Notes under the pieces: generated by a model
What the model saw: only the letters and a program-made list of their open reading frames with translations
What the model was told of the DNA's origin: nothing
Databases searched by the model: none
Shown here: one piece after another, positions 12,653-45,473 of the stretch
Position numbering within the stretch: position 1 is the stretch's first letter
How the letters are laid out: each line of letters opens with the position of its first letter
Position numbers and translations under genes: made by a program
Assembly (NCBI GenBank): GCA_045576675.1
Contig: JAZNGX010000176.1
Coordinates: 3,892-67,891, forward strand
Direction of reading: 5' to 3'
DNA length: 64,000 bases
Source of the DNA: Clostridia bacterium
GTDB taxonomy: Bacteria; Bacillota; Clostridia; Monoglobales; Firm-18

Positions 12653-14335
12653 TTAACCCTTCCAGTTAGGATTAAATCCGCTTATATCGTTGCCGTCCAA
12701 CATCAGTGTTCGATAATATGTAAGCAAATCGTCAACCTTTATATTGTCATTGTTAATACTTCTTATTGTGTTATATTCAGGCAAATTCCAAGCCAGATGA
12801 TTTGTATTCCAGCAATGGAATTTTTTAACACCTGCATTTTGCATTTGTGCAACAACCTTTTTGTAATAATCAAGGGTCTGAGTGTTAGCCCACGGTAATA
12901 CATTATATACCTCAACTCCATATTTTTCAAGAGCAAGATATTCTTTTGCGTAACCCAAAACCTTTTCTACGTTTGTTGCAAAGTTTCTTTTTACAATTTC
13001 AGTATCTAACGTTTTGGCGTTATACTTATCCATATCAATTGTGCCATCATCCTTAAGGCATCCGTCAAGGTCTTCGTATATTTCCATATCGTGCTGAGTG
13101 GCAGCATCAATAAGACCAAGCCTTGCCCATTCTTCGACATCAAGACCAAGATGCTTTGATGTTGCAAGACCATAATCTGTAATTACGTTAAGCCTAATAT
13201 TGCTACCGATTAATTCTCTTACCCGTTTTACAAAGTCTGTCATAAATTCGCACCAAACACCATGCAATCTTTCATCTGAAACAGGCAAAGTAATCGGGTC
13301 AACATCAGGATACAACTCCCTAAATCTGTCTATAACAGGCTGTTCAAATCCAATATGAATACCTCTTGTAAATATCAGTGAAATTCCGTCAAAACCACAC
13401 TCAAGGCCTAATTTCAATGAATTGAGCATATAATCTCTTACCTCGGGATAAGCAAATGAACAAGCTTTTATTGTTCTGCCGTCACGGTTTTTACAATAAT
13501 ACTGCTTGTTATCAGCAAAGAAATTCTTACTGTAAAACGGAATTCCGCCACTTAATACAAAATTGGCAGGACTCATTCTGACCGATGAGTACATTTTCAT
13601 TCCATATTTGTGTCCATATTCAACATATCTGGTCAAAAGCTTTTTCGGCTCAAAATTGTAACCATTCCATTTTTTGGGAAGAAAGCTTGAAAGCGGCACA
13701 TAGCTGTCATCTTGAATCTGATCTCCAAAAGGATATGTTTCAATATTGCAAATATCAACATTTGAATTTTTCAGTGCATATATCTTCATCAATGTGTCAT
13801 CATAGGTTTTATATTCCTCTGTGATGAACGGGTCAATATCAATATGCCCCTGAACACATCTGTTTTTCTCGCCATTGTAAGCTTCTATTTCAGCCTCATC
13901 CATTTTTTCGCATCTTATCCATACCAGATTTGATGCAGGATTCCCGTTGGTTTCAGGCTTCCTGATAATAAGCCTTTGTCCAGTTAAATCAGCACTTTTC
14001 CAATAATACTCCTGCATATATTCATAAGTCATCCACACCTTTGGATTACCCTGTGGCGGAGTTCTTAAGCCTGCAAAACATAAATCATCAGTAAGCTTTG
14101 CATAAGTATAATGGTCAGTTCCAAAATCAATCTGACACAAGTAAATTCTGTGCCATCCCTCAAGATCAAGCTCAAGCTCAATATTTTCAGGTCGTGCTTC
14201 CTGAGCTGCCACCAACATTGTGCCGGTTCCAAGCTTTGTTTCATAAGACATACTACGCCATTTTGACAATTCAAATTTCTCTGATATGTTTTCTTTGTTC
14301 ACGGCAATAGCCGGCAAGTCATAAAAAACACTCAT
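12653..14335 (-). CDS. Cytoplasmic hypothetical protein, possibly a TIM-barrel glycoside-hydrolase-like fold
   Basis: Start moved to ATG 14335 (RBS GGGGAGAG), giving 560 aa. No signal peptide. Segment CGFDGISLIFTRGIHIGFEQP..YPDVDP resembles GH-like (GHL) barrels, but I cannot assign a family by eye. Confidence 0.45.
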   Translation of the reverse strand: MSVFYDLPAIAVNKENISEKFELSKWRSMSYETKLGTGTMLVAAQEARPENIELELDLEGWHRIYLCQIDFGTDHYTYAKLTDDLCFAGLRTPPQGNPKVWMTYEYMQEYYWKSADLTGQRLIIRKPETNGNPASNLVWIRCEKMDEAEIEAYNGEKNRCVQGHIDIDPFITEEYKTYDDTLMKIYALKNSNVDICNIETYPFGDQIQDDSYVPLSSFLPKKWNGYNFEPKKLLTRYVEYGHKYGMKMYSSVRMSPANFVLSGGIPFYSKNFFADNKQYYCKNRDGRTIKACSFAYPEVRDYMLNSLKLGLECGFDGISLIFTRGIHIGFEQPVIDRFRELYPDVDPITLPVSDERLHGVWCEFMTDFVKRVRELIGSNIRLNVITDYGLATSKHLGLDVEEWARLGLIDAATQHDMEIYEDLDGCLKDDGTIDMDKYNAKTLDTEIVKRNFATNVEKVLGYAKEYLALEKYGVEVYNVLPWANTQTLDYYKKVVAQMQNAGVKKFHCWNTNHLAWNLPEYNTIRSINNDNIKVDDLLTYYRTLMLDGNDISGFNPNWKG

Positions 14336-14406
14336 ATAAATCTCTCCCCTGATAATATTAACGGCTCTTTTGCGTGTATTAAACGCACGCAAAAGAACCA
14401 TTTGAA

Positions 14407-17133
14407 TTAATATTTGTATACTACAATTCCGTATAAAACGCCCGTTGTTGTATGTATTGCAACTCTGTAATTCGGATTCATTGAATATACATATGACTGC
14501 AGCTCGTTTGCACTTAATTGTGTAATCTTTTTATCACTTCTGCTCATATCACACAAATAAATCATCTTTAAATTGCCGCCAATCCTATATATACCACTGC
14601 TTCCGGTCGGGTCAACAGGTGCTCCCGCAGTTGCAGGAATATTCATAGTTGTTTTAATAACATTTGAATTCGCCTGATGGATAATACCATAGAACAAATG
14701 ATGATCAGCACCGGCGGTACCAGCATTTGAACCATCGTTGAACAATATCTGACCGGGAAGTGTGTTACCTGCACTTGCATCAAATACAGGACCGTTGTTA
14801 TGAATCTCATAAACAAGACCGTCAACATCAGAATATGCTATAATATCACCCTTGCTAATATTGCTTACCAAAGAAGGATCTTCAACAGTAAGCTTAACCT
14901 TTGCGTTGCCTGCCATCGTGATACCGTCAATTTTAATAACTTCAACTCCATCGTCGTCAAATGTCGTTTTCATATCGGTAACAAGTGTAAGTGAATCGTA
15001 TCCTGCACCTGAGCCTCCGCCTGATGTATCTCTTATAACAATAGCTTTTGCAACAGCATCATCATCAAAATCAACACCGTATGCATCAACAGTAATATTT
15101 GTCTGACCAATTATATAAGTATTAAGATAATTTGTGTTTCTGATTTTATATAATCCGTCATTTCCATAATTTGCAGGGTCCGCAGGCACCGCAAAAATAA
15201 CAGTACTGCTATCTAATAGGAAGCTTACATTATTTCCGCTGAAGAAAAATTCTCCCCACTTAGACCAACGGTTACCTGTTGAAGTGTACTTAGACAAATT
15301 CGCAGCTGTTTCGCCTCTTCCTGAAACTGAGGTATCAATAGCATTGATAGTGTTTTTCCCGTTTGTGGTAAAGCGTATAAGCTGCGGAATCGAGTCAGCC
15401 TGTACAACACCTGCATCGTCAGTTTTCAAGTCTGTAAGTGCATCTGTTCCGCTTTTCTTTGTGCCGTCAATAGTGATTTTTTCGTCAGTATTGTACACCT
15501 CTGGTTCAAGTGCATCCTCAGCAAGCAGCTTAACATACAAGCTTTCGCTCATTGTATTTTCAGTTTCTGTAGCTTTAATCAAATAACCGAACTTCCATTT
15601 GTCAGAAGTGTCAAGGCTTACTGCGGCAACCTTTTCATCCATATCAAGATAGAACACACCGCTATCGCCCACACTTAAATCAATCGCATTGTTGTTTCCG
15701 GCAGTAACCGCTGCCATATAACTGTCTGCAATGCGGAAGCTTTCGCCATCAACTGTTATTATTTCACCCTCGGCATCGACTTCGATATTTGAAATCACAC
15801 CAAATACAGGGTCGTTAAATACAGTGGCAGTTAACACTGATAAATCATTACTTAGTGCAACTGATAAAACATCCCACTTGGAAAGGTCACCGATTCCGAT
15901 ATCGTCTCCCCACATACCTTTAAGTGACACTATATCATAATCATCAGGTGAAATTGAAATCATACTGCCATACATATCTGCTACAAATCCATCAGATACA
16001 TTCACAGAATTTACAACATAATTTGTAAATTCAAACACGTTTATTACATCGTAAACATAGTCGTCATTGTTGTCTATAAGTGTAACAGTACCAGTTGCAG
16101 GAGCAAGTGTATCCAGAGTAAAGCCAGGGAATGCAACTCCGTTGTAAATAACGTCAACCTCATCAGAAATCTCATATTCTATAGCCTTTTTGTCGCCTTC
16201 AACAACAAAATTTGTATATGAGAACTGAGCACTTGTGCGAAGTATATCATCCGCCTTTACAGTTACAATATTATTCTTTCTGTCATTTAATGTGTATGTT
16301 ATTATTTCGTAATCATCATTTTCGTCTTCAATGTAATACGCCTTTACATTGTAACCAAGATAATCACCAATGTCCAAATCACCTGCAAAATAGCTGACAC
16401 CATTGATACGTACAATGTTTTCAGGCTGCTTTGCCTTTCTTGTAAGTGTTGTTATTTCATTTGCATCAATAATTCCATCAACAGTTTTAATATCAAAGTT
16501 TACATCAAGCAGTGTTTCGCCCTCAATTGCCTTATACTCTTTGGCAACACCAAAGCCAACCTGCTGCAACACCTCAGTGTGCAATGCTTTGTATATTAAA
16601 TTAATAAGCTTTTCATAAGTAATGTCCTCTCCAACAAGACCTGTAACGTCATTGCAGATTTTAACCTCATTACCTATTGTTAAATATCCAACAGGATATC
16701 CGCCGTTTTTATCAGCAAGCATTTCGTAGCCGATAACATTAACAAGTGCTGTTACTGCCTCTTCATACTTTACAGTGTCATCAGGTCTGAAGCTGCCATC
16801 ACCAAAGCCACTTACAACGCCAAGGTCGGCTGCCGCCTGAATACTGCCTGCATAAGCGTTTTTGGCAATATCATTGAATGAATACGACTGATAAACCATA
16901 TTCTTTGTGCTTTCAGCATTGTACAGCTTAAGAAGAATATCGCACATTTCTCCTCTTGTAATAATATGCTCTAGGTCATATTCATCGTCAGTCTGTATAA
17001 CTCCGATTTGTTCCAGAAGTGTGATTGCCTTTTCAGTATAAGGCAACGAAGCATCAGAGCTTGCATACGCAAATGGCACAGAAATAATACTTAATATTAA
17101 TAACAGTGCCGTTAATTTGATTACTGTTTTCAA
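14407..17133 (-). CDS. Secreted cell-wall-anchored protein, N-terminal SLH triad plus ~700-aa unknown beta-rich region
   Basis: 908 aa. Signal peptide MKTVIKLTALLLILSIISVPFAYA. SLH repeats (ITRGEMCDILLKL; FNDIAKNAYAGSIQAAADLGVVSGFGDGSFRPDDTVKYEEA). Remainder unrecognised. Confidence 0.7.
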   Translation of the reverse strand: MKTVIKLTALLLILSIISVPFAYASSDASLPYTEKAITLLEQIGVIQTDDEYDLEHIITRGEMCDILLKLYNAESTKNMVYQSYSFNDIAKNAYAGSIQAAADLGVVSGFGDGSFRPDDTVKYEEAVTALVNVIGYEMLADKNGGYPVGYLTIGNEVKICNDVTGLVGEDITYEKLINLIYKALHTEVLQQVGFGVAKEYKAIEGETLLDVNFDIKTVDGIIDANEITTLTRKAKQPENIVRINGVSYFAGDLDIGDYLGYNVKAYYIEDENDDYEIITYTLNDRKNNIVTVKADDILRTSAQFSYTNFVVEGDKKAIEYEISDEVDVIYNGVAFPGFTLDTLAPATGTVTLIDNNDDYVYDVINVFEFTNYVVNSVNVSDGFVADMYGSMISISPDDYDIVSLKGMWGDDIGIGDLSKWDVLSVALSNDLSVLTATVFNDPVFGVISNIEVDAEGEIITVDGESFRIADSYMAAVTAGNNNAIDLSVGDSGVFYLDMDEKVAAVSLDTSDKWKFGYLIKATETENTMSESLYVKLLAEDALEPEVYNTDEKITIDGTKKSGTDALTDLKTDDAGVVQADSIPQLIRFTTNGKNTINAIDTSVSGRGETAANLSKYTSTGNRWSKWGEFFFSGNNVSFLLDSSTVIFAVPADPANYGNDGLYKIRNTNYLNTYIIGQTNITVDAYGVDFDDDAVAKAIVIRDTSGGGSGAGYDSLTLVTDMKTTFDDDGVEVIKIDGITMAGNAKVKLTVEDPSLVSNISKGDIIAYSDVDGLVYEIHNNGPVFDASAGNTLPGQILFNDGSNAGTAGADHHLFYGIIHQANSNVIKTTMNIPATAGAPVDPTGSSGIYRIGGNLKMIYLCDMSRSDKKITQLSANELQSYVYSMNPNYRVAIHTTTGVLYGIVVYKY

Positions 17134-17155
17134 TGTGTGTTTCCTCCTCTCGCCA

Positions 17156-18934
17156 TTACTTTAAGCCAAGCAGCATATTTATAACCTTTGCAGCCTGAGC
17201 ACGTGTTGTAAAATCAGTTGGTGCAAACATATTACCACCAACACCGTTAATAATCTCTGCACTGTAAAGAGCTGAAACACTTACCTTTGCATAATCAGCA
17301 ATATCTTTACCGTCTTCAAAGCTTAATGCAAGATTGCCGTTAAGCTCTACACCTGCAGCAGTCAAAGCTCTGTAAGCCATTACAGCCATATCCTGACGTG
17401 TGATATTTTCGCCAACACCAAAGCTGTTGTCAAAGCCTTTAACTATACCAAGGCTGTCTGCAGTTGCTATATAAGGATAACACCAGTCTGCTTTTGCTAC
17501 GTCGTTATAAACAACATCTGAGCTGTCTGCCTTCAAATCAAATGCAAGCACAAGCATTTTAACAAACTGTTCTCTTGTAACATTGGCATTCGGAGCAAAC
17601 CGGTCATCACCAACGCCGTTTATAACGCCAAGCTTTGCAAGATTGTAAATGCTTTCGTGAGCCCAAGAGCCAACCTCGTTTATATCTGAAAATGAAACAG
17701 TTGTTTCAACAGGCTTTGTTACTTCTTCTTTCTTTTCTTCAACATCGCCTAAATACGAAACGTTTGTTTTCACTCCACCGCCGAAGGAACCGCCGCCTCC
17801 GCCGCCACCTGATGAACCTCCGCCTGTTACAGGACGGTTGTTATTATTGCCCTGATTCTGATTAACAGGTGTAAAGAAGTTTGCAAATGCAGTCTGTATT
17901 TCTGCAACTGATTTAAAGCTCTTATGAGCAAGTGCCTTACCAAGCTCAAGCTTGTCTGCAGTTACAAAATCGCCACTTAAATCAAGATTTAAAATGTTGT
18001 TATAAGCAACAAGCACATCAGCTAAGCTTTCACGTGTTGCATTATTTACCATACCTATTGCAACCGCCACTTTATAACACTTGTTAATATCCTCTATATC
18101 AAGAGGTTTTAGCTGCTGACGAACATTCATAAAAGCCTTATGTATTTCTTCCTTATCTGTTTTTGCCTTGTACTCGTCCTCTTCTGTTTCATACTCGAAG
18201 TCTTCAGGCTTATATTCATCACCCAAGTCTATTGAAAGACATTCATCATAGCGTATAAGTGCTGCACCGATATCTGTTGTTGTATTTAATGTACCAATAC
18301 CAACAGCCTTTTCAAACAAGCCGACAAATTGTTCAATTGTTGTAATTGATGTAACTCCTGCTTCGTCTCTTACGGCAACAAAAGCTTCACCTGTTGCAGC
18401 TTCGGCTGAAGCATAAGCATTATAAAGCTCAGCAGGCACACTTAAAACACCTGTATCTGTCATATTCTGCTTTAAAGCAAGCCCAATATTTGCTGTAGTT
18501 GCTGTACTTGCTGCCAACAATGCAGAATTCACTTCACCAACAGTTGCATAATAGAATGGTACTGTTCGCTGTGCTAATTCAATATCATCTGCACCCTCGC
18601 CAAGGATTATATTGTAATAACCGCTTTGGATATACGCAGGTAGCTTTATTGAGAAATCCACTGCACCGTCTTCTGCAGTTGTTAATTCATCAACAGCGTA
18701 AACTATTGTTGCAAAATTTTGCGGAGTAATGTCCGCAGGTGTACTTCCTGCTGACATTACATACACAGAGATTTTCTGCTCACCACCATCTGCAACACCG
18801 TTTAATGTAACCTGTCTTGTTTGACTGTTAACTGTAGCCGTTAATGAATATCCTGCTGAAAATACATTTAAACTAAAAGAGAAAATGCTAGCAATTATCA
18901 ATACCAGTGTAACAATACTTTTAAATTTTTTCAT
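17156..18934 (-). CDS. Secreted protein with Gly-rich linker and C-terminal SLH triad
   Basis: 592 aa. Signal peptide. Linker NNNRPVTGGGSSGGGGGGGSFGGG. Three SLH repeats (FSDINEVGSWAHESIYNLAKLGVINGVGDDRFAPNANVTREQ; YNDVAKADW..; FEDGKDIADYAK..FAPTDFTTRAQAA). Confidence 0.7.
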   Translation of the reverse strand: MKKFKSIVTLVLIIASIFSFSLNVFSAGYSLTATVNSQTRQVTLNGVADGGEQKISVYVMSAGSTPADITPQNFATIVYAVDELTTAEDGAVDFSIKLPAYIQSGYYNIILGEGADDIELAQRTVPFYYATVGEVNSALLAASTATTANIGLALKQNMTDTGVLSVPAELYNAYASAEAATGEAFVAVRDEAGVTSITTIEQFVGLFEKAVGIGTLNTTTDIGAALIRYDECLSIDLGDEYKPEDFEYETEEDEYKAKTDKEEIHKAFMNVRQQLKPLDIEDINKCYKVAVAIGMVNNATRESLADVLVAYNNILNLDLSGDFVTADKLELGKALAHKSFKSVAEIQTAFANFFTPVNQNQGNNNNRPVTGGGSSGGGGGGGSFGGGVKTNVSYLGDVEEKKEEVTKPVETTVSFSDINEVGSWAHESIYNLAKLGVINGVGDDRFAPNANVTREQFVKMLVLAFDLKADSSDVVYNDVAKADWCYPYIATADSLGIVKGFDNSFGVGENITRQDMAVMAYRALTAAGVELNGNLALSFEDGKDIADYAKVSVSALYSAEIINGVGGNMFAPTDFTTRAQAAKVINMLLGLK

Positions 18935-18938
18935 TATT

Positions 18939-21900
18939 TCACTCCGTTCCTAATGTAGCCAGCAACCTTGTTATAGCCGCTACAGCCTGTGCTCTTGTAA
19001 CATTGCCTTTCGGTGAGAATTTCTGTTCACCAACACCCTCCATCAATTCAAGTGCTGATGCCTTATTTACGCTTGCCTTTGTCCAGTCTGCAATACTTCC
19101 GCTGTCTGCAAAGCTTGCAGAATTTCCGCTTGGTGCAATGCCACATTTTTTATCATATACACGAACAATTATATCCGCCATTTCTTCTCTTGTGATTGCA
19201 TTTTCTGGCTTGAACACATTGCCATTTAATAATTCGTCATTAATATAACCTAAATCATAAGCCTGCTGCAGATATGTTGCAAACCAGTCATCGGGATTAA
19301 CATCGTTTGCTATGCCCTTATATAATGTTAAGTCGTAGAAAATATTCTTTTCTTTCAAAGCACGAACAATCATAGCAACAAACTGTGATCTTGTTACCTC
19401 TGAATCAGGGTCATAAATGCCTTCTTCAACGCCCTTTACAAAGCCTGCCTTTGCAGCCTTTAAGATTTCATCCTTTGCCCAGTGACCATCAATATCACTA
19501 AACGTTGGATTTACAGCAACAGTATCAGCCTCAAGAATGCCAAAATCAGAGATATAACCAACTTTGCTGAACTCGTTCTTAGCATCTTCTATGTCCGAAT
19601 CAAACATCCAATCCTCAACAGCAATAATCCATAAATTGCCATCTCTTAATGCCCAAGCATTACCCTTGTCTGTTGTAGCAAGTACTTCAGATGTAGCAGT
19701 TGGCTTTAATACCTGTACAGTCATGCCATCAGCATTCACATCAGTTTCGCTTGTGTAATACTTATCAATTTCAGGAACCGCACCTAAATCCTTACGTGCT
19801 CCCATAAATACAACCTTTTTATATTCCGGACGTGATCTTAACATTTCACAAAGTGATGGTCCGTAAAGTCTTGATGCCGGAGCATCAGACATATTTGTAA
19901 CCAACAACTCTGTATCAATCCACGGATCCATCAAAGGCAAAAGTACAAAATCAGAAGTTACACGCGGATATGATCTGTTAACCATATCACCATCATAATG
20001 AACAGCTGTGAAAATGTTTGGCTTATACCACCAAGCATCAGCAGCGGGATACATATAACCGTGATCATACACATACTTTGACTTAACCAGTTCCTTTACT
20101 CTTGAAGGTTGTGTCAGTATTTTACGGTAGTTGTTAGCCCATTCATATAATGCTGGCTTTGTTTCGTAAGCATATGCCTGTATAATTATACCTGAATTGT
20201 TATTGGAAATAAGGAAATCATAAATTCCCTTTGCACCGGTGTCAAGCAACAAATTAAAATGATCGTGCATATATTCCTCAGTTGGATAGCTCGTTTCGCC
20301 CGATTCATACTTCAAATTAATATTTTCTTCAGTATTAGTTTCGGTTACAACAAGCCAAACCGTCTTCTTGCTGGCATTTGCCTGACTGTAATACGAACCG
20401 TTTCTACCCATTGACTTTGGTGTTGCACCATAAGTTTCGCAGCCTATTCCATCAAAACCATAGTTTTCTGATGTAGCAATACGATATGAAGAATATGAAT
20501 CAGTCATCTTATACACAACAGGTGTATCAATGTACTTTTTCACAGCTTCAGCCATATCGTTATCAAAATCACGATGCTTTTCTGAAACGAAATCGGTAAA
20601 ATCGCTCCACATTCTGCTGTTATATGTATCAGAATAATAAAGCTCGTTTGTATAAGCATCAGCCGCATAAGTGCCATAGCCGCCCGCTTCATCTTTATCG
20701 GTTGTATAAAGCGGAATTATAAGTGCAGCCTTTTCAAAGCTTTCAAGAGCAGGTGTGATTTTCCAGGAATCGTTTAAAACATCAATTGTTCTATATCTTG
20801 TTTCCAAAAACTTAGCATATTTTTCATTTGCAGTATCATTGAATACTCTTGCAGATTCCATATCATTGGCGTAAGAAGACTCATTAAAGCACAAGTCAAT
20901 CCACATTGTAAATCCATCGCCAACCTCAAGTCTTTCTGCAAATTCGCCAACATTTTTAACTGTTATATCGCCAAATTCCAGGAAGTTACTAAAGTTAGAT
21001 GTGGGCCTGCCTTTGAACTTTGGAGTAAATGCAACTGTGTATGCCTTGCCTTCGCCTTCCGGTAACTCAACCTCGGCACTAAAACGCCAGTTGCCGCCGC
21101 CTAAGCTTTCAATCTTGCCGTCACCATTCTGAACAGCATTTTGTGTTTCCTGATCAATAACAATAAACTTTACAGCTGTTCCTTCGGGATTAGCATAATT
21201 TGCAAAACCATTTCCCGGTGCATCAAGAGTTACAGTACCGCTTTCAGTAACGTCTTTTACACGTACAGTTGCTCTACCATTATCAATACCTCTGATATAA
21301 TAAGCCTCAAAATCGTGTCTTGCACGGTCAAGTCTATCATTCAACTGAATTGAGTAATTTATGCCTTTTTCATCAAGTACAGCGAAAAGATATTCAAAAG
21401 CCCAAGTGGGATAATCAATATTAAAGCCTCGGCTGTTGATATAAATATCAGTTACGTTATGCTCAACAAGTCTGCCGATAAATTCAAGGTCAGCCTGGAA
21501 ATTCTTTTCGTTGTTTGCCGGGTTGTTAACATCAAAATAGCAAAGATAATCAAAAGCAACCATACCGCCTAATGGTATATAAGGCACACCGTCTCTTATC
21601 TTGGTGAATGTCTGATTTACATACCAGAAATGACAATTTCCTGATTTTTCACTGTCCAAAAAGCCGTAACTCATAGGCTTGTAATGCTCGCCTACATTTG
21701 GTTTGCTTTTAACAAGGTTAACGTTTATCACATCGTTCTGCATTAATTTGGTCTTATGAAGTCCAACCGTCGCAGTATATGCACCTTTAGGAATAGCCTC
21801 GGTTACAGTAAATGAACAGCTTAATTCATTTTCTTCTCCCGGAATCCACTTTGAAGTTTCAACAGTTTCACTGCCTTCCAATACACCCCAAAGCACATCC

Positions 21901-22976: not shown

Positions 22977-22990
22977 TCCGGTACCCTCCT

Positions 22991-24187: not shown

Positions 24188-24275
24188 TATATCATTCCTT
24201 TCATTAATGAACCCCGTATGCCTTAAACTTAAAAATTTGCACACTTTTAATTTGTCGTTCTCGTAAGGCTATTAT

Positions 24276-25166: not shown

Positions 25167-25184
25167 CGTATTAAGCTCCCCTCC

Positions 25185-26102: not shown

Positions 26103-26136
26103 AACAAACGCCCCTTTTATGTACTACTTATTTTAA

Positions 26137-27519: not shown

Positions 27520-27532
27520 AATATTTCCCCCA

Positions 27533-28429: not shown

Positions 28430-28474
28430 ATTAATTACCACCTTAGTTTGAATGTTTTCCCTTATAACTGCAAT

Positions 28475-28516
28475 ACTGACGCTTCGTTAAGATATATTTA
28501 CAGCCGAAGCGTCAGT
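28475..28516 (-). terminator. Hairpin between the 754-aa gene and the aldolase operon (terminator or processing site)
   Basis: actgacgcttcg..18-nt loop..cgaagcgtcagt: 12-bp GC-containing stem, weak U-tail on the minus strand. Confidence 0.4.
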
Positions 28517-28545
28517 TTTGCCTGATACATGTTAGTTATGTTCTA

Positions 28546-30810: not shown

Positions 30811-30841
30811 AAATATTTCCTCCTATTCTTTATTGGTTATT

Positions 30842-30925
30842 TTGCTTAATATAATTTTATCACAATCACGTAATTTGGGTAAAGTACATAAGTTTGCGAT
30901 TTGGTTTGTTATCTTGCTTTTATTT
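30842..30925 (-). promoter_or_regulatory. Conserved upstream element, copy A (promoter plus putative operator of the 754-aa gene)
   Basis: About 85-90% identical over ~84 bp to 38812-38895. Minus-strand TG-A-TAAAAT extended -10 (30854-30862) and TTACCC -35 (30877-30882). Conserved distal block AACCAAATCGCAAA..TGTACTTTACC. Confidence 0.5.
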
Positions 30926-32702: not shown

Positions 32703-32736
32703 TTTTTCTCCTCCTTGTATTTATATAAATAGTTTT

Positions 32737-34032: not shown

Positions 34033-34048
34033 AGATTATCACCCGGTT

Positions 34049-38779: not shown

Positions 38780-38811
38780 AAACTACACATCCTTATATCC
38801 AATTAGCACAA

Positions 38812-38895
38812 TTGCTTAATTTAATTTTATCACACACGTATAATTTAGGTAAAGTACACAAATTTGCGATTTGGTTAGTTAATTTGCTTTTATGC
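38812..38895 (-). promoter_or_regulatory. Conserved upstream element, copy B (promoter plus putative operator of the 1576-aa operon)
   Basis: Paralogous to 30842-30925. TG-A-TAAAAT at 38824-38832 and TTACCT at 38847-38852, with identical spacing because of compensating indels. Confidence 0.5.
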
Positions 38896-38916
38896 ATTAT
38901 GTACCTTGCTTTATCG

Positions 38917-38945
38917 TTGACAAAGAAAAATGCTGATGTTACAAT
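38917..38945 (+). promoter_or_regulatory. Near-consensus sigma-A promoter of the sensor/TCS/GH78 operon
   Basis: TTGACA (38917-38922), 17-nt spacer ending in TGT, TACAAT (38940-38945), 33 nt before ATG 38979. Confidence 0.6.
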
Positions 38946-38978
38946 ATAAATGTTAAAAAAGGCGAGGTGACATAAGCT

Positions 38979-39974
38979 ATGTTTCAGGGAATAAAAAACA
39001 AAATTGAAATATTTATCATTTTTGCTGCGGCATTTTTAATAACACTTGTCACGATAAGCATCGGTTCAACCTTCCGCATATCTTTAACCAACGATTTTAT
39101 CAATCACTCAGTTCAGTCTGCTGAGCAGCTTAATAATAATATAAAGCTTAATCTGACTTCGTTTGAAACAGTTGCAAATTTGCTTACACATAACACAACC
39201 ATTATCGAAGCTATGTCAACCGACAAATATAATATTGATGTAATCCCAATACTGGATAGTGTTGCGATGACAAATCTAAACATTGCAGGTACGTGCCTTT
39301 ATGGTGTTAATGGTATCAACTATTATTCAAGCACTGTTCAGGCTCCTCCGCCACTTGATTTTATTCTTAAAAACGAGATTCCGGACGATTTTGTTCAATC
39401 CGCAGACAGCACAACCTGGATATTGCGTGAGCATACCATAAAGGAATACAAGAATTACACAGGGTATTACAGAAGTGCTAACGGCTTGTTTTCTTTTGTA
39501 AGCAAGCTCAGAAATGAAAGCAATGAGCTTTTAGGATATTTTCTAATTGATATCCCGATTAATAACATATACAGCTTTCCGATGAATAAAGATAACATTT
39601 TTTTAAACAATACAAGTATATATATTTTAAACGAACAAAACAAAATAGCTCACACCTTCAAACAGGCAAATAATAATGACGAAGCCTTCAATCCTGAGCT
39701 TATCACCAACAAAGATATCACTTTGCCGATACGCCTTAAAAATGCTGTTGCAACAGTAAGTGAGCTTGAAAACACCAATACAAAAACCGTTGTATATACT
39801 TCGTTCAGATACATAAAAAACAAGTTCTATGAGCTTATTGTTATACTGTTTATTTTAGATTCGTTGTTTATACTGCTTGTAATACTTTTGGTTAAGCCTT
39901 TATCAAAAAGTATATATAAGCCATTACAGGCACTTTATTCCAAAATGAAAGGTATTCACAAGCTGATACAATAA
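38979..39974 (+). CDS. Membrane protein resembling only the sensing half (TM1, extracytoplasmic domain, TM2) of a YesM-type histidine kinase
   Basis: 331 aa. TM1 IEIFIIFAAAFLITLVTISIG, ~260-aa extracytoplasmic region, TM2 LIVILFILDSLFILLVILLV. Ends 25 aa later (KPLSKSIYKPLQALYSKM), where a HAMP helix would begin. No H-box or ATPase. Confidence 0.5.
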   Translation: MFQGIKNKIEIFIIFAAAFLITLVTISIGSTFRISLTNDFINHSVQSAEQLNNNIKLNLTSFETVANLLTHNTTIIEAMSTDKYNIDVIPILDSVAMTNLNIAGTCLYGVNGINYYSSTVQAPPPLDFILKNEIPDDFVQSADSTTWILREHTIKEYKNYTGYYRSANGLFSFVSKLRNESNELLGYFLIDIPINNIYSFPMNKDNIFLNNTSIYILNEQNKIAHTFKQANNNDEAFNPELITNKDITLPIRLKNAVATVSELENTNTKTVVYTSFRYIKNKFYELIVILFILDSLFILLVILLVKPLSKSIYKPLQALYSKMKGIHKLIQ

Positions 39975-40001
39975 TACTCTTAATAAAGGGAGCGTAACCT
40001 G

Positions 40002-41597
40002 ATGTTAACAATCATAGTAGTTGATGACGAGCATTTAACACATCTCGGATTAAAAATGGCAATCGACTGGGAAAAATACGGATTTCAGATTATAGGCGAC
40101 GCCAAGACCGGTGAAGAAGGTCTTGAACTCGCTCTTAAGTTACGCCCCGATATTATAATCACTGATGTTTGTATGCCCAATATGGATGGACTTGAAATGA
40201 TTTCTCAACTACGTGAGCATAACTTAGACCCTAAAATAATAGTTATCTCCGCCTTCGATGAATTCCATTACGTTAAACGAGCATTGGAAAGCAAAGCAAT
40301 TGCATATCTTTTAAAACCAATCAAAGATGCAGAGCTTATTAACGTGCTTTTAGAACAGAAAAAGATTATTGAACGCGAAAAGAAAATGAAAAGCGAAATC
40401 GAGGATTATCACGAAAACCTTGATATCTTAAAAGAGCACTTTTTTATTGACCTGTTCAATGGTAAAAGTATTGATGAAGAAACCCTTGACAAAAAGGTTA
40501 AAGCCTTTGACATTCCGGAAAACAAAAATTTTTATATAATAAAATTAGGGCTTGATGCATATAAGGAGCTTACAAAAAACAATGAAGCAGACAAGCTGTT
40601 CACATTAAACAAACAGCTTAAAGAAGAAATAAATCAGGCGTTTTCAAACACGGCAGATTTTCATATAAATCTTATAACAGACGAGAAGTATTGCACCGTT
40701 GTACTGTTTACAACACAAAATCTTCAGTTTGTTACAGAGCAGTGCAGAATTTTAAACAAAGCCTTTGGTAGAAACACCCAGAACACAATTTCTATAGGAA
40801 TAAGCAACTGCCGTTACAGTCTTTTGGAAGCACAGGATGCGTATGTTGAAGCAACTGATGCATTAAAATTCAAATCAGTTATGGGGCATAACAGTGTTAT
40901 TCAGGCAGCTGAAATAACTTCAGACCGCCAGCAATCAAATTTAACACAAAGCGAAATCAACAGCATCATTACGTGTATAAAGGCACATAAATCTGAAGAC
41001 ACCTTTATGCATTTAAACGAGCTGTTCAGAAATTTAAAAAACAATAACAGCAGTATTGATTATGTTAAGGAGCTTTGCGTACAGCTTTCTGTTCTTGCAT
41101 ACAACACTTCAAGCGATGGCAGTGACACACAACAAAACGAGCAGCTTATGTACATCAGCTCAGAAATTCACGAGCAGGAAACAATTCAGGACGTTTTTGA
41201 ATGGACAAAGAATTTTATTGACGATATATTAAAAAATCTTATACAATCAGAAGAGCTTGCGTATCGCAAGGATGTAAGACTTGCAATCAATTATATAAAG
41301 AATAATTTTGACAAGCAAATCACTGCAGAACAGGTTGCAAATGAGCTTTTTATAAGCTATCATTACCTGATGCACATTTTCACAAGAGACGTTGGCAAAA
41401 CATTTAATGAATATCTGACTGATTATCGTATTGAGGTAGCAAAGGATATGCTGAAAAACCAAAACATTACAGTTTCAAAGGTCAGCGAAATGATAGGCTA
41501 TAAAAGCCCTAAATACTTTGGCATATTGTTCAAGAAAAAGACAGGCTTAACCCCTAAGGAATATGCAGAACAAAAATACAACAGGGCACAGGAGTAA
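40002..41597 (+). CDS. YesN-like response regulator (REC domain plus AraC-type HTH)
   Basis: 531 aa: IIVVDDE..PDIIITDVCMPNMDGLE..ISAFDEFHYVKRA..LLKP, with C-terminal AraC HTH (ITAEQVANELFISYHYLMHIF..FNEYLTDYR..GYKSPKYFGILFKKKTG). Confidence 0.9.
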   Translation: MLTIIVVDDEHLTHLGLKMAIDWEKYGFQIIGDAKTGEEGLELALKLRPDIIITDVCMPNMDGLEMISQLREHNLDPKIIVISAFDEFHYVKRALESKAIAYLLKPIKDAELINVLLEQKKIIEREKKMKSEIEDYHENLDILKEHFFIDLFNGKSIDEETLDKKVKAFDIPENKNFYIIKLGLDAYKELTKNNEADKLFTLNKQLKEEINQAFSNTADFHINLITDEKYCTVVLFTTQNLQFVTEQCRILNKAFGRNTQNTISIGISNCRYSLLEAQDAYVEATDALKFKSVMGHNSVIQAAEITSDRQQSNLTQSEINSIITCIKAHKSEDTFMHLNELFRNLKNNNSSIDYVKELCVQLSVLAYNTSSDGSDTQQNEQLMYISSEIHEQETIQDVFEWTKNFIDDILKNLIQSEELAYRKDVRLAINYIKNNFDKQITAEQVANELFISYHYLMHIFTRDVGKTFNEYLTDYRIEVAKDMLKNQNITVSKVSEMIGYKSPKYFGILFKKKTGLTPKEYAEQKYNRAQE

Positions 41598-41601
41598 AAA
41601 A

Positions 41602-43347
41602 ATGAATATCTTAAACACACTTATTCCATTTTTAAGACAGTTTAAAATCAGTATTCGTTTGTTGGTAATTCTTTTGATATGTACGCTTATTCCGTCACTT
41701 GTTATTTTCAGAATTGCAGACTTTTACTGCAGTAATATTACAAACAAATACATCAGTGACTATATTGATTTAACAGACAGCGAGATAGAATCACGTATAA
41801 ATATGATTGCAAACTCGCTTGGTATTCTTTCACTGGATATAATTCAGAACAAGGAAATACCATTGATTATCAACGGTGATTATGAGTTTTCTCATAAACA
41901 GGAAAAGCTTGACGGTGTGCTTTCAACCCTTATCAGTGATAAGGTATTTATAAGCGGTATTTCTATAATCACAGTTAATAATGAAGCGTACTTTTATTCC
42001 TGTGATAAAAATTTTGTATTAAACGATTATCATATTATCAATAATGCTGATGACACAACGAGTATTAATTATATCGAAACAATTAAAGATGCCAATAATA
42101 ATTCACACCTCACCTTTGGTATACAGTTCAGAAATTTTTATACAGGCTACCATTTAGGCACACTGTTGATTTATGTTAACGAACAGGTTCTTCACGATAT
42201 TTACGGAAAATATGTATCAGACCAGCATCTTATATACGTGTTAGACCAGAACGATATTATTATTTCGTGCAGTGACACATCAAAGCTTGGCTCAACATTT
42301 ATTGATATAGCATTGGTTAAAAACAATACCTTTGAATTTGAAGACAAAAAGTACATAACCACTGTTCGTAATATGACAAAAAATATAGGCTTTTCATTTG
42401 ACGGCTGGAAAATTCTTCATTACGCATCATACGATACGTTGCTTGATAACACAAATATGTTCACAAAGTATATGACTGTAATACGTAATACTTTTTTATT
42501 ACTTGCGCTTATTTTTTCACTTGTGATATCACGCAGACTCACACGTTCAATTTCAGTTCTTCAGCGTAAGATGGTCAATATTGAAAAAGAACGAAGCTCA
42601 CCGCCTGTTCACCTTTTAAAAGGGAACGATGAATTGTGGGAGCTTGAAAAGATTTTCAATGATATGATAGGGCAGATTAACAGCCTAATCGAAAAAAACA
42701 ATGAAGAAAAAGAAGAAAAAAGAAAGCTTGAATTCAAGGCTATGCAGGCACAGATTAATCCGCATTTTATTTATAATACACTGGATGCTATCACGTGGCT
42801 TGCAAAAATCAATGACAAGCCTGAAATCGTTGACCTTTCAATTGCACTTTCAGACTTCTTCCGCATCAGTCTTCAAAACGGGGAAAACTTTATAACAATA
42901 AAAGACGAGCTGGCACACGTTAAGGCTTATATTCTTATTCAGCAAACGCGTTTTCAGGGAAAATTCACCGTTGAATATGATGTTGATGAGGATATTATGA
43001 ATTACAAAATGCCCAAAATTATATTACAGCCGCTTGTGGAAAATGCAATTATTCACGGAATTGCACCGAGCAAAAATCCGGGTTTAATCCAGATTATAGG
43101 GTATCGTGACGGCAACAATATTCGTTTTGAGGTTATAGATAACGGGGTAGGCTTCGTTGTTGACAATCCTGATAACAAAAACAACAGCATCAACGGCAGA
43201 AGCGGTTACGGAACGAAAAACATAAGGCAACGTCTTATGCTTGAATACGGCGACGGATATGATTTAAAATTCCACAGTAAGCCTGATATTGGAACACGTG
43301 TGGAGGTTACAATAAAAATCCAAGAGGACAAGGAGACATCAGTATGA
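41602..43347 (+). CDS. YesM-like sensor histidine kinase (PF06580-type His_kinase plus HATPase_c)
   Basis: Start moved to ATG 41602 (RBS GGAG), 581 aa. Two TM segments flank a ~270-aa sensor. H-box LEFKAMQAQINPHFIYNTL. N-box LQPLVENAIIHG. G-box DNGVGF..GYGTKN. Confidence 0.9.
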   Translation: MNILNTLIPFLRQFKISIRLLVILLICTLIPSLVIFRIADFYCSNITNKYISDYIDLTDSEIESRINMIANSLGILSLDIIQNKEIPLIINGDYEFSHKQEKLDGVLSTLISDKVFISGISIITVNNEAYFYSCDKNFVLNDYHIINNADDTTSINYIETIKDANNNSHLTFGIQFRNFYTGYHLGTLLIYVNEQVLHDIYGKYVSDQHLIYVLDQNDIIISCSDTSKLGSTFIDIALVKNNTFEFEDKKYITTVRNMTKNIGFSFDGWKILHYASYDTLLDNTNMFTKYMTVIRNTFLLLALIFSLVISRRLTRSISVLQRKMVNIEKERSSPPVHLLKGNDELWELEKIFNDMIGQINSLIEKNNEEKEEKRKLEFKAMQAQINPHFIYNTLDAITWLAKINDKPEIVDLSIALSDFFRISLQNGENFITIKDELAHVKAYILIQQTRFQGKFTVEYDVDEDIMNYKMPKIILQPLVENAIIHGIAPSKNPGLIQIIGYRDGNNIRFEVIDNGVGFVVDNPDNKNNSINGRSGYGTKNIRQRLMLEYGDGYDLKFHSKPDIGTRVEVTIKIQEDKETSV

Positions 43348-45473
43348 ACAGAGCAAAATGGATAACACTCGGGTCATTACCTTCAATGATGCCGGCAAAT
43401 TATGATATCTTAAATGGTAGTATATATTTTAGAAAACAGTTTTCACTGAAATATGATATAAAAAGCGTAAAGCTTTCAATATGTGCATTAGGTCAGGGAG
43501 AATATTTTGTCAACGGCAAACCTGTAGCAGACGAAGTGCTCCCTACACCATTTACCAGATTTGATGCAAGAGTTATTTACAACGTATATGATATTACCCA
43601 TCTTGTAAACATAGGCGAAAACGCAATAGGCGTTCACGTCGGCAACGGATTTTATAACGACAATATGTCAGTATGGAATGACATTATGACAGACTGGAAG
43701 GACAATCCGAAGCTTGCTGCAGCAATTGAAATCAGCTATCAATCAGGCGTAACGGAGGTTATACGTACAGATAAAACCTGGCGTTGCACAGAGGGTTGTG
43801 CTATATACAACCACGTCAAGCAGGGTGAAATATGCGATGCAAGACTTCGTCAGAATGGCTATGACACAGTTGATTTCGATGATTCAGGATGGGAAAATGC
43901 CGCATTAACAAACGAACCGGGAGGAATACTTGAAACTGCTGATGTTCCACCGGTTCGTGTGATACGCACACTAAAGCCTGTAAGATTTGAAAATGACATT
44001 TATGATTTCGGTGAAAACATAAGCGGTTGGGTAAAAATCAAAGTGCACGGAAAGCCCGGTCAGGAAATAAGAATTTTATATGATGAAAGCTTTGAGCAAT
44101 TCCGTCAGATGCGTGGTGCAGACACCTGCTTTGCGTTTGCACAAAGAGAAAACAAGCCTGTTGCAAACGAAGACATATTTATATGCAGCGGTATTGAAGA
44201 AGAATTCCGTCCCTCCTTCTGCTACCACGGTTTTCAGTATGCAAAATTAGAAAACGCACCCGACAATGTAGAAATCGTTGCAGAGGTTGTTCATACCGAC
44301 CTTGAAACCATAGGTACATTTGAGTGCAGCGATGATATGATTAATAAAATACATTTAGCATCAGTAAGAGCAACGCTTGCAAACTTTGTAGGTATGCCAA
44401 CAGACTGCCCGCACAGAGAGCAATTCGGTTGGACCAACGATGCTCAAACCTCAACAGAGCAGGTGCTTATGAACTTTGATGCAAAACGCTCTTATGCAAA
44501 ATGGCTACGCGATTTCAAGGACGCACAGCGTCCCAGCGGTCAGCTCCCCGGTATTATCCCATGTACTGGTTGGGGCTACAACTGGGGGCAAGGTCCGGGA
44601 TTTGGTTGTGCAATTATTATTATTCCGTATAACATCTATATTAACACAGGCGACACCAAAATTCTTGCCGATATGTGGGAGAATATGGTTAAATACTTAG
44701 GCTGTCTGGAACGTATGAGCGATAATTATATAGTTGATTACGGTCTTGGCGACTGGGTTCCTGTTCACCAACCCGCATGCCCACGCGCTATTATCGACAC
44801 TGCATATTTTTATAACGACTGTGTTAAAATGGCTGAAATAGCAAAGCTTATCGGCAAAGACAGCACCGAATGGTCTGAAAAGGCCGCAAAGATAAAATCT
44901 GCTTTCAGAAAAGAATTTATCGGTAAGCCCGAGCTTGAAACATACCAGACATATTTTGCATGTATGATATTTCAGGGACTGCTTGAAGAAAACGAAATCC
45001 CCGAATATGCAGCAAAGCTTAATCAGCTTGTTATTGATGCAGATTATCATATTGACTGCGGAATGTTCGGAACAAAATATATATTCAGCGCTTTGTCAGA
45101 AAATGGATATACTGACACAATATATAAAATGGTTACAAATCCAACCTTCCCAAGCTATGCATACTGGATACTAAACGGACGCACAACCCTATGCGAAACC
45201 TGGGATATGCAGCAATCACTTAACCATCATTTGTACAGCGAGGTTGATAACTGGATTTACAGATATCTGGGCGGCTTCAGATATTACAAGGACGGTCTTG
45301 TAATAAATCCTGTATATATGGATAATATTGACTTTGTTAAGGCACAGCATAAAGGTATCAGTGTAGTGCGAAACGGCAAAAATGTTACAGTTTCTACCCC
45401 GATTGAGGTTCGTGTTGTAATAGGTAAACACGATGCTGTTGTACAGCCAGGAAAACACGAATTTTGTATGTAA
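43344..45473 (+). CDS. Alpha-L-rhamnosidase, GH78-like, cytoplasmic
   Basis: 709 aa, no signal peptide. N-terminus AKWI..YFRKQFSL, central PTDCPHREQFGWTNDAQ and a six-hairpin C-terminal region match my memory of the bacterial GH78 layout. ATGA overlap with the kinase stop. Confidence 0.8.
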   Translation: MNRAKWITLGSLPSMMPANYDILNGSIYFRKQFSLKYDIKSVKLSICALGQGEYFVNGKPVADEVLPTPFTRFDARVIYNVYDITHLVNIGENAIGVHVGNGFYNDNMSVWNDIMTDWKDNPKLAAAIEISYQSGVTEVIRTDKTWRCTEGCAIYNHVKQGEICDARLRQNGYDTVDFDDSGWENAALTNEPGGILETADVPPVRVIRTLKPVRFENDIYDFGENISGWVKIKVHGKPGQEIRILYDESFEQFRQMRGADTCFAFAQRENKPVANEDIFICSGIEEEFRPSFCYHGFQYAKLENAPDNVEIVAEVVHTDLETIGTFECSDDMINKIHLASVRATLANFVGMPTDCPHREQFGWTNDAQTSTEQVLMNFDAKRSYAKWLRDFKDAQRPSGQLPGIIPCTGWGYNWGQGPGFGCAIIIIPYNIYINTGDTKILADMWENMVKYLGCLERMSDNYIVDYGLGDWVPVHQPACPRAIIDTAYFYNDCVKMAEIAKLIGKDSTEWSEKAAKIKSAFRKEFIGKPELETYQTYFACMIFQGLLEENEIPEYAAKLNQLVIDADYHIDCGMFGTKYIFSALSENGYTDTIYKMVTNPTFPSYAYWILNGRTTLCETWDMQQSLNHHLYSEVDNWIYRYLGGFRYYKDGLVINPVYMDNIDFVKAQHKGISVVRNGKNVTVSTPIEVRVVIGKHDAVVQPGKHEFCM

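Follow-up and report, generated by a model that had tools for sequence, protein, structure and literature searches.

Organization of the locus

The stretch of DNA analysed here, 64,000 nucleotides from a Clostridia bacterium (assembly GCA_045576675.1, contig JAZNGX010000176.1, positions 3,892 to 67,891; hereafter the window), contains a cluster of 18 genes, including one for an EamA/DMT-family transporter, that is quite probably a Gram-positive polysaccharide-utilisation locus (gpPUL) of an uncultured spore-forming Clostridium, with a core cassette for extracellular glycan breakdown and uptake. The open reading frames (ORFs) described in the initial annotation are present at the places given there, and Pfam and NCBIfam confirm the families that it named; twenty genes had been counted, but the list sums to 18, and the start proposed for the cluster, 12653, leaves out the DMT gene that the accompanying description includes. 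ORFs of such length with homologs elsewhere are not chance ORFs. By the definition that Sheridan et al. 2016 reportedly gave, a gpPUL is a locus in which one or more enzymes for the degradation of polysaccharides are encoded together with a transporter for carbohydrates and a regulator of transcription; here, enzymes resembling glycoside hydrolases (GH) plus a GH78, an ABC importer and a YesM/YesN pair are found together, and this gene content bears out the interpretation as a glycan-utilisation cluster.

The main run of genes, on the minus strand, extends with small gaps or overlaps from an aldolase gene (27533-28441) to the EamA/DMT gene (11785-12633). The aldolase is followed by the components of the core cassette, namely a lipoprotein solute-binding protein (SBP) of the oligosaccharide (CUT1-like) type (26137-27546; Pfam SBP_bac_1, lipobox LSGC after the Met codon at 27519), two ABC permeases (25185-26102 and 24276-25166; both Pfam BPD_transp_1), a 417-aa secreted protein (22991-24244), a 1345-aa putative enzyme (18939-22976), a 592-aa protein (17156-18934) and a 908-aa cell-wall protein (14407-17133). 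The 417-aa protein consists of one copy of a ~165-aa beta-rich unit opening with W-x-E-A-E, here called the X repeat, an aBig_2 domain (45 bits) and a C-terminal region, and the 1345-aa protein of a signal peptide, an X repeat (aa 26-192), Ig-like domains, the catalytic region (aa ~322-1147) and a C-terminal module of three SLH domains. Upstream of the aldolase run and on the same strand lie the gene for a 754-aa secreted protein (28546-30810; three X repeats, aBig_2, a weak GH115_C match and a further C-terminal region) and then a block composed of the genes for a 1576-aa secreted putative enzyme, an MFS transporter and a tandem FAH-fold protein. The 1576-aa protein (34049-38779) has a signal peptide, three X repeats (37112-38698), aBig_2 and Ig-like domains and the catalytic region (34052-36502), and no anchor. 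The probable true starts of three ORFs are internal Met codons, at 14335 for the cytoplasmic 560-aa protein described below, at 24187 for the 417-aa protein and at 27519 for the SBP.

The six secreted proteins, estimated initially at about 5,600 aa, amount to 5592 aa, and near the N-terminus all six have a hydrophobic segment resembling that of a signal peptide. Three of them and no others (1345, 592 and 908 aa) have SLH domains, and Pfam SLH together with a profile of the 908-aa family confirms the division into three anchored proteins and three without anchor. The description of the six as uncharacterised giants stands insofar as none has a high-confidence match to a well-characterised CAZy family, and a search of NCBIfam gave no family for five of them or for the 560-aa protein, the only matches being to SLH regions and far below cut-off; on the other side, two appear to be enzymes of recognisable fold, two (754 and 417 aa) are apparently non-catalytic paralogs of N-terminal halves, and two are SLH-anchored proteins that do not look like enzymes.

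Conservation of the core cassette

A scan of one genome per species identified 26 loci with the enzyme family (numbered with L in the following), all in metagenome-assembled genomes (MAGs); ten are in Bacillota/Clostridia MAGs sampled from the Hadza gut, the rumen and elsewhere, and more distant copies occur in Planctomycetota, Armatimonadota and Lentisphaerota/Victivallis. Comparison of the window proteins with these loci by tblastn, taking as neighbourhood the sequence within 10 kb of the enzyme genes, revealed a recurrent order of SBP, permease, permease, X protein, one or two enzymes, 592-like SLH protein and 908-like protein, often with another X protein. This order recurs across uncultured Clostridia in at least seven loci (L001/L002, L006, L007, L009, L014, L017 and L018). 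Permease homologs with 36-50% identity adjoin the enzyme genes in L006, L015, L017 and L025, and in these related loci a 592-like homolog always adjoins the 908-like gene. YesM/YesN-like pairs flank the enzyme genes in L001, L007, L018 and L023, and are replaced by AraC-type regulators of ~750 aa in L005, L006, L015 and L017. The accessory genes differ from locus to locus: GH78 in L013 and L018, a GH78-like protein in L008, GH38 in L005 and L008, GH2 in L009, a melibiase-like protein in L016 and an FAD oxidoreductase in L006.

These comparisons indicate that the core cassette is a conserved unit and that the rest of the supposed supercluster is specific to this genome. The initial proposal of one regulon of twenty genes is accordingly narrowed, the importer, the X protein, the enzymes and the 592/908 pair being all that is jointly conserved across the related MAG loci; synteny to a characterised polysaccharide-utilisation locus was not found. 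Several MAGs contain two or three separate loci (L006 and L007; L010, L014 and L023; L015, L016 and L025; L011 and L018), often with two tandem enzyme genes each, so that the enzyme family seems to have expanded within these genomes.

The catalytic region of the 1576-aa and 1345-aa proteins

Residues 759-1576 of the 1576-aa protein and 322-1147 of the 1345-aa protein are 41% identical over ~820 aa (pairwise BLAST). The AlphaFold (AF2) model of this region, obtained from a 28-sequence alignment (pLDDT 89.5, pTM 0.91), starts with two beta-sandwich domains, which are followed by a (beta/alpha)8 barrel containing a beta-rich stretch at model residues ~232-332 and by a C-terminal alpha/beta-plus-beta part, in which a predicted alpha/beta domain after the barrel recalls in its position the GH42 trimerisation (M) and C-terminal domains. 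Foldseek searches of the PDB with this model placed first the GH42 beta-galactosidase 8ibs (E=3e-14, TM-score on the target 0.54, identity 12%), followed by a GH164 beta-mannosidase (E=2e-8, ~0.5, 10-11%) and the GH42-annotated exo-carrageenase 6ptm (E=5e-8, 0.37, 13%); GH66, beta-amylase, GH5 and GH35 structures were matched with weaker E values, lower TM-scores and 8-12% identity.

In GH42, the acid/base Glu belongs to an NE(Y) motif after strand 4, and the nucleophile Glu comes after strand 7. Within the short stretch that aligns by sequence, the pair N1133-E1134 of the 1576-aa protein (35378-35383) aligns with N159-E160 of BiBga42A, the GH42 acid/base; the crystal form E160A/E318A of that enzyme (PDB 8ibs) has two mutated residues, of which E160 is one. 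This Asn and Glu, together with two further Glu residues (E523 and E556 of the model), are invariant in the 28 aligned sequences and kept in 137, 136, 136 and 141, respectively, of 164 family representatives; the motif positions in the 1345-aa protein are N698/E699, E847 and E879. The last residue of the four, E1315 in the 1576-aa protein (model E556, in the motif VTET), stands at the end of a predicted strand, 181 residues beyond the NE motif, and this position makes it the likely candidate nucleophile.

At the sequence level, the match to GH42 is limited to ~60 residues (phmmer against the PDB, E=0.008 over 58 residues; profile search, E=7e-6 over 60 residues). The Pfam GH42 family PF02449 is matched with 26.3-27.6 bits, against a cut-off of 21, only across profile positions 134-234 of 376; it is weakly matched by 18 of the 28 family members, always at about the same positions (~134-234), and Glyco_hydro_42M and Glyco_hydro_42C by none of the 28. 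A word-indexed search of 5.8 billion proteins returned 26 homologs, at most 38% identical and none functionally named, and when 1.84 billion cluster representatives were searched exhaustively with phmmer, 310 were returned at E<=1e-3, 134 of them at E<=1e-30, all unnamed; a set so small cannot contain classical GH42, which is a large family. A narrow literature search found no paper on this family. The distant GH42-like signature reported initially is thus upheld by the Pfam score (26.3 bits), the confident model and the Foldseek matches to GH42; the modelled fold points to a catalytic region that is probably a retaining enzyme of the clan GH-A type, which by sequence falls outside recognisable GH42, and the rare family probably represents a new family of the clan.

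The GH42 beta-galactosidases (BiBga42A, 8ibr/8ibs; Gan42B, 4oif) are the best Foldseek match of this region and share its NE motif; a conserved Glu (model E556) ends a later strand about 180 residues further on, where a nucleophile would be expected, and a predicted alpha/beta domain comes after the barrel, but the catalytic region is only 10-13% identical to them, the Pfam match is partial and the classical GH42s were not retrieved by phmmer. GH42 enzymes are, moreover, typically cytoplasmic trimers of about 700 aa, whereas the window enzymes are secreted, 1300-1600 aa long, SLH-anchored or X-bearing, and have a beta-rich insertion in the barrel. The GH164 beta-mannosidase Bs164 (6t75/6t6g) and the Bacteroides ovatus exo-carrageenase (6ptm), the next-best matches (E=2e-8 to 5e-8), have the same clan GH-A layout of barrel plus accessory domains, but with 10-13% identity and no match at the sequence level, and their specificity therefore says little about the window family.

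The X repeat and the X-only proteins

The eight X copies are distributed among the 1345-aa and 417-aa proteins (one each) and the 754-aa and 1576-aa proteins (three each), and at least one X unit is present in 74 of 169 family proteins. The 754-aa protein corresponds, as a paralog, to residues 1-750 of the 1576-aa protein, with 32% identity over 784 columns. The 417-aa protein shares 49% identity with the first X unit of the 1576-aa protein, and its C-terminal region can be aligned to the C-terminal parts of both the 754-aa protein and the N-terminal half of the 1576-aa protein. Both X-only proteins are, as judged by their domain content, non-catalytic. The search of the X-domain profile against solved structures gave no relative, its sole match, to Fap1 at E=0.46, being noise; in Pfam, two of the eight copies weakly match GH115_C and two Golvesin_C. 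A kinship with CBM6/35, suggested by the 'EAE' start motif, found no support. The position of the X repeats, their repetition and their occurrence in stand-alone secreted proteins beside enzyme genes suggest that they, and the X-only 754-aa and 417-aa proteins, most likely bind glycan.

The SLH-anchored 592-aa and 908-aa proteins

The 592-aa protein has a signal peptide, an N-terminal region of ~390 aa that matches no family, a Gly-rich linker and a C-terminal module of three SLH domains (Pfam, 129.7 bits), the same number as Pfam detects in the 1345-aa protein. In the 908-aa protein, the signal peptide is followed by an N-terminal SLH module (aa ~30-190) and ~720 aa of small beta domains. A single SLH repeat had been assigned to this protein; the module is instead degenerate but complete, with three repeats, as a 50-sequence profile matched the SLH structure of Sap in the PDB with E=5e-25 and aligned the whole of SpaA-SLH over residues 35-185. 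In the AF2 model (pLDDT 79.4, pTM 0.57), Foldseek superposes the SLH part with TM-scores of 0.68-0.77 and finds no structural match for the chain of beta domains. The SLH modules match structures of SLH domains that bind secondary cell-wall polymers. Single-sequence PDB searches with the 560-aa and 908-aa proteins yielded nothing useful, while profiles succeeded.

The 908-aa protein has 89 homologs. One of them, in L034, belongs to a different polysaccharide-utilisation locus, with a GH95/CE2/SASA giant, an aBig_2-SLH protein, an AraC regulator and a Melibiase_C-domain protein, and together with the homolog in L036 this indicates that the 908 family is a more general wall protein. A relation between the 592-aa N-terminal region and the SLH proteins neighbouring the 908-like genes of L034 and L036 was considered and discarded, as only the SLH parts match.

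Cytoplasmic enzymes

The cytoplasmic 560-aa protein (12653-14401, minus strand; ORF of 582 aa) has no signal peptide and 83 homologs, none functionally named. A profile of 33 sequences matched PDB 6rzd, the inverting GH156 exosialidase EnvSia156, with E=2.2e-10, and Pfam GHL10 is matched by 3 of the 33 members, which places the protein as a distant relative within the GH156/GHL10 superfamily. In EnvSia156, D14 is the base and H134 the acid, and R129, R202 and N346 clamp the carboxylate of the substrate (Bule et al. 2019, PMC6811678). The counterparts of this triad are R275, R346 and N532 (ORF numbering), conserved as Arg in 31 of 33, Arg in 33 of 33 and Asn in 26 of 33 sequences (with Asp in the remaining 7), the alignment of the N346 column coming from a low-scoring, collinear third segment. 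The Asp14 region lies outside the aligned segments, with D166 (31 of 33) as only a candidate, and an extra N-terminal domain of ~160 aa is present with respect to GH156. The triad is kept and His134 is not, which argues for a GH156 relative with different catalytic residues: the 560-aa protein is a putative exo-hydrolase that probably binds a carboxylated sugar. Its likeness to EnvSia156 thus comprises the triad, the GHL10-related (beta/alpha)8 fold and the presence of a NanA-type lyase in the window operon; it differs in lacking His134 throughout the family, and in that the neighbours of its homologs point to rhamnose and acids of the 2-keto-3-deoxygluconate (KDG) type, not to sialic acid. 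GH156 enzymes have been reported in gut Firmicutes_A, with greater diversity in Hadza metagenomes (Mann et al., bioRxiv 10.1101/2022.06.28.497753).

The homologs of the 560-aa protein occur beside GH78 and RpiB/LacAB in L031 and L033; with an ABC importer, GH53, an Eda-type aldolase and a PfkB kinase in L032; with an SLH-anchored heparinase II/III-like lyase, GH88, a DHDPS-family aldolase, an Eda-type aldolase and a DGOK kinase in L037; and among unrelated genes in L003 and L038. The recurring themes of these neighbourhoods appear to be rhamnose and 2-keto-3-deoxy-acid catabolism. Candidates for the sugar released by the 560-aa protein are sialic acid or KDN, Kdo or Dha, or a uronic acid next to rhamnose; Kdo and Dha occur in the side chains of rhamnogalacturonan II. 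In L031 (11763-13560) and L033 (8193-9998), the homologs lie by GH78 and are paired with an RpiB/LacAB-type isomerase and with a protein of ~405 aa for which Pfam gives no confident match; this small module recurs in these two unrelated metagenome contigs and is absent from the window. L037 is headed (1-3600) by a 1573-aa protein with aBig_2, CBM96, a heparinase II/III-like lyase domain and SLH, and reads as an SLH-anchored lyase system in a related organism. A conserved pairing of NanA with the 560-aa protein was rejected, since the DHDPS-family gene of L037 is only 24% identical to the window NanA. In L038 (11965-15019), the homolog is near a pyruvate formate-lyase-like (PFL-like) enzyme and its activase, which are 24% and 40% identical, respectively, to those of the window; such a pairing may be a coincidence or reflect a link with rhamnose/fucose metabolites.

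The class I aldolase of the main run is of the N-acetylneuraminate-lyase type: NCBIfam PRK04147 is matched with 366.5 bits against a cut-off of 281 (TIGR00683 with 313.9, below its cut-off of 382), and the 33 best PDB matches are all named, or putative, neuraminate lyases (E=1e-74 to 5e-47), the first DHDPS appearing at 6e-34. The residues that we take to form the active site of Escherichia coli NanA (the Schiff-base Lys, the Tyr of YNxP, the DE pair and the Ser of GIGSTYN) are identical in the alignment of the window aldolase, which is on these matches predicted to be a true NanA-type lyase. The hint at a 3-deoxy-2-keto or nonulosonic acid sugar in the initial annotation is strengthened by this lyase and by the GH156-related protein with its carboxylate triad, and the hint at rhamnose by the confirmation of the GH78 alpha-L-rhamnosidase (43344-45473, plus strand), whose three Pfam domains score far above cut-offs (PF08531, 154 bits; PF05592, 58 bits; PF17389, 275 bits). 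The tandem FAH-fold protein (30909-32702, minus strand) matches Pfam FAA_hydrolase in two stretches (157.6 bits) and, in NCBIfam, superfamily-level models only. Like the GH78 and NanA, it has no signal peptide and is assigned to the cytoplasm.

Transport, regulation and transcription signals

The nearest PDB relatives of the SBP are maltose-, arabino-oligosaccharide- and chitin-oligosaccharide-binding proteins. The other transporters of the cluster are the MFS protein (32737-34032, minus strand; Pfam MFS_1, 64 bits) and the EamA/DMT protein (Pfam EamA, 48 bits; nine hydrophobic segments), whose gene is the last of the minus-strand operon. The regulatory operon, on the plus strand, begins with a 331-aa membrane protein (38979-39974) in which a Cache-like extracellular domain (dCache_1, 32 bits, below the cut-off of 45) lies between transmembrane segments 5-23 and 281-299; it ends where a HAMP domain would begin and has no kinase part, and in this it resembles the sensor half of a YesM-type kinase. 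This Cache stub could be a gene remnant or an accessory sensor; its origin as a duplicate of the kinase sensor domain was not supported, similarity being found only at the junction of the second transmembrane segment and HAMP (E=0.12). A YesN-like response regulator (40002-41597; REC and AraC helix-turn-helix domains) and a YesM-like histidine kinase (41563-43347), both recognised by Pfam, follow, and then the GH78 gene.

The genes are closely spaced: the aldolase overlaps the SBP ORF as listed by 14 nt, YesN overlaps YesM by 35 nt and YesM overlaps GH78 by 4 nt, and the gaps from the 908-aa to the 560-aa gene and from the latter to the DMT gene are 5-71 nt, depending on the start, and 19 nt. 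Terminator-like hairpins are found only at the two outer ends, after DMT (11773-11742) and after GH78 (45484-45528). In the stretch that separates the 1576-aa gene from the divergent regulatory operon (38780-38978), both strands have promoter-like sites, which are consensus matches only: TTGACA-17-TACAAT with TG at 38917-38945 on the plus strand, and sites at 38923-38896 and 38853-38824 on the minus strand.

The hairpin at 45484-45528 has a near-perfect 20-bp stem directly 3' of the GH78 stop codon, and its terminator score applies to the minus strand alone; being near-palindromic, it could end both the GH78 transcript and that of a convergent minus-strand ORF (45564-45893). The SpoVT ORF as listed (11129-11788, minus strand) has a TTG start overlapping the DMT gene. 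As the MazE-like domain does not start until residue 46, translation probably begins ~40 codons downstream of that TTG, making room for the hairpin at 11773-11742.

Proposed function and alternative explanations

The gene content and the conserved core are compatible with the following scheme for the likely substrate, an anionic, rhamnose-containing glycan. A two-component system of the YesM/YesN type would probably control the divergent promoters. The released 1576-aa and the wall-anchored 1345-aa enzymes would cut the polymer through a retaining mechanism with two glutamates, in the 1576-aa protein most likely E1134 as acid/base and E1315 as nucleophile; the X repeats would target the enzymes to the glycan, with the X-only 754-aa and 417-aa proteins assisting, and the 592-aa and 908-aa proteins would be non-catalytic wall-anchored partners, for which scaffolding or substrate holding is a guess. 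The ABC system with its lipoprotein SBP, judging from the family to which it belongs, would import the oligosaccharides, from which, in the cytoplasm, the GH78 would trim rhamnose and the GH156-related 560-aa enzyme a carboxylated sugar; the NanA-type lyase would then split the released 2-keto-3-deoxy acid, the FAH protein perhaps contributing. A wider reading, which we put forward tentatively and would sooner doubt than assert, is that the enzymes form with the 592-like and 908-like proteins a wall-anchored multi-protein complex peculiar to uncultured fibre-associated gut and rumen Clostridia, attacking an anionic glycan with rhamnose that no known system of Firmicutes addresses, and that the 560-aa protein founds a sister family of GH156 that releases a 2-keto-3-deoxy acid of the Kdo, Dha or KDN type by means of catalytic residues other than the Asp-His dyad.

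In design, the locus resembles the gpPULs of gut Firmicutes and the yes (rhamnogalacturonan) locus of Bacillus subtilis, with degradative enzymes, an SBP-dependent ABC importer, a YesM/YesN-type regulator and cytoplasmic exo-glycosidases; it differs from them in that the main enzymes belong to no characterised family and in the conserved non-catalytic SLH pair and X-only secreted proteins, of which we know no description in characterised gpPULs. The comparison with a Sus-like apparatus made initially holds as functional analogy only: surface enzymes and putative glycan-binding proteins are encoded by a transporter and a sensor, as in Bacteroidota, but with a Gram-positive envelope, SLH anchoring and uptake through ABC, MFS and DMT proteins, and Pfam detected no homolog of SusC (the TonB-dependent transporter) or SusD in the 18 genes.

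Several observations weigh against the scheme. The GH42 likeness of the enzymes is distant (12% identity, with the Pfam GH42 match limited to profile positions 134-234), and ~15% of the family representatives do not have one or another of the candidate catalytic residues; glycan binding by X is argued from position and from the weak GH115_C and Golvesin_C matches of two of eight copies each. In the 560-aa family, the column of His134 holds Asn, Ser, Gly, Asp, Thr or Ala, with no His among the 33 sequences, and the closest homolog (58% identity) is in an unrelated context. A 908-like protein is also found outside such loci, beside another SLH protein in the non-PUL context of L036, and the locus contains no ABC ATPase gene. 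In none of the related cassette loci does the 10-kb neighbourhood of the enzyme genes contain a homolog of nanA, FAH, MFS, DMT or the 560-aa gene, so that these five may serve another substrate. The promoter-like sites are no commoner than in shuffled sequence, which leaves gene spacing as the only basis for co-transcription and makes a single regulon over all genes a conjecture.

The absence of those five genes from the related loci favours an unlikely but serious alternative, that of a mosaic in which only the ABC importer, the X proteins, the enzymes and the 592/908 pair are one unit, and nanA, the GH156-like gene, DMT, the 1576-MFS-FAH block and the two-component system with GH78 are separate modules for different substrates; the quite different loci in which 560-aa homologs are found and the variation of accessory GHs among cassette loci (GH38, GH2, GH78, melibiase-like) are in line with it. 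The arrangement in the window speaks for a closer association: nanA and the listed SBP ORF overlap, gaps of 5-71 and 19 nt separate the 908-aa, 560-aa and DMT genes, and no terminator-like hairpin occurs until after DMT; GH78, moreover, recurs both by cassettes (L013 and L018, with a GH78-like protein in L008) and by 560-aa homologs (L031 and L033), and this recurrence and the tight spacing indicate that the modules are linked more than chance adjacency would give. That the two large enzymes are very divergent GH42 beta-galactosidases of an ordinary (arabino)galactan or pectic-galactan locus, like the yes/gan loci of B. subtilis, seems improbable. The PF02449 score just above cut-off (26.3 against 21; weak in 18 of 28 members), the GH42 structures at the top of the Foldseek matches and the company of a YesM/YesN-type regulator and a GH78 would fit this explanation, but it has to account for a Pfam match of ~100 of 376 positions, Glyco_hydro_42M/42C in no member, 310 phmmer relatives among 1.84 billion representatives, 10-13% identity to GH42 structures with GH164 nearly as good, and a secreted, multi-modular, SLH-anchored architecture unlike that of cytoplasmic GH42.

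Foraging on host sialoglycans (mucin or N-glycans), in which surface cuts and import would be followed by GH156-like desialylation inside the cell and cleavage by NanA, is still less probable, even though the NanA-type lyase, the GH156 relative with its conserved carboxylate triad, the GH38 and GH2 of sister loci and the reported occurrence of GH156 in gut Firmicutes_A and its diversity in the Hadza (Mann et al., bioRxiv 10.1101/2022.06.28.497753) would all suit it. No nanE, nanK, nagA or nagB was found in the window, the catalytic His of GH156 is absent, a GH78 rhamnosidase does not fit host glycans, nanA is in no sister cassette, and the 560-aa homologs accompany GH78, GH53, GH88, a heparinase II/III-like lyase and KDG-type kinases and aldolases, which point to plant or bacterial acidic glycans. 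The three SLH-anchored proteins, the 908-aa protein having the N-terminal SLH layout of the S-layer proteins Sap, SbsB and SpaA and a 908-like gene standing beside another SLH protein in L036, could also be taken as parts of a cell-envelope system that, with the enzymes, builds or remodels the organism's own S-layer, secondary cell-wall polymer or exopolysaccharide; this is very improbable, as across many MAGs an ABC importer for oligosaccharides, regulators that sense sugars and exo-glycosidases of the cytoplasm consistently accompany these genes, and Pfam detected no glycosyltransferase, flippase or polymerase genes in the locus. Extracellular breakdown and uptake of a glycan by a gpPUL built on the core cassette is the interpretation that we prefer.

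Most of the polysaccharide degradation carried out by gut Firmicutes is still unmapped, especially in uncultured lineages enriched in high-fibre (Hadza) and rumen microbiomes. Uncharacterised loci of this kind are common in gut Firmicute MAGs, this one being unusually well delimited, conserved and tied to fibre-associated uncultured lineages, and a new GH family will probably emerge from it, perhaps along with a new binding module, within a familiar system design. The rare GH42/GH164-like enzymes with their candidate residues, the X repeat, the 592/908 pair and the His-less GH156-related enzyme are clonable targets, whose characterisation could add one or two CAZy families and reveal the dietary or microbial glycan on which these organisms specialise; the general view of glycan utilisation would stay unchanged, the locus being a target for enzyme discovery and not a new kind of biology.

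Surroundings of the locus

The search of the window for RNA families and tRNAs found none. The base composition of the region is not distinct from that of its surroundings, the organism being a sporulating Clostridium of ~38% GC, and the nearest matches of the window proteins are in Ruminococcaceae/Oscillospiraceae MAGs. The locus is flanked by housekeeping genes, namely those for SpoVT, SpoVAD, GroEL, the PFL-like enzyme and its activase, GatA/B and AdhE; the PFL-like glycyl-radical enzyme (696 aa) and the radical-SAM activase are encoded at 8019-11009 on the plus strand, ~1.6 kb from the end of the locus. On the other side, a 413-aa ORF without Pfam match (47643-48884, plus strand) is situated just upstream of a transporter operon with ABC_sub_bind, BPD_transp_2 and ABC_tran genes.

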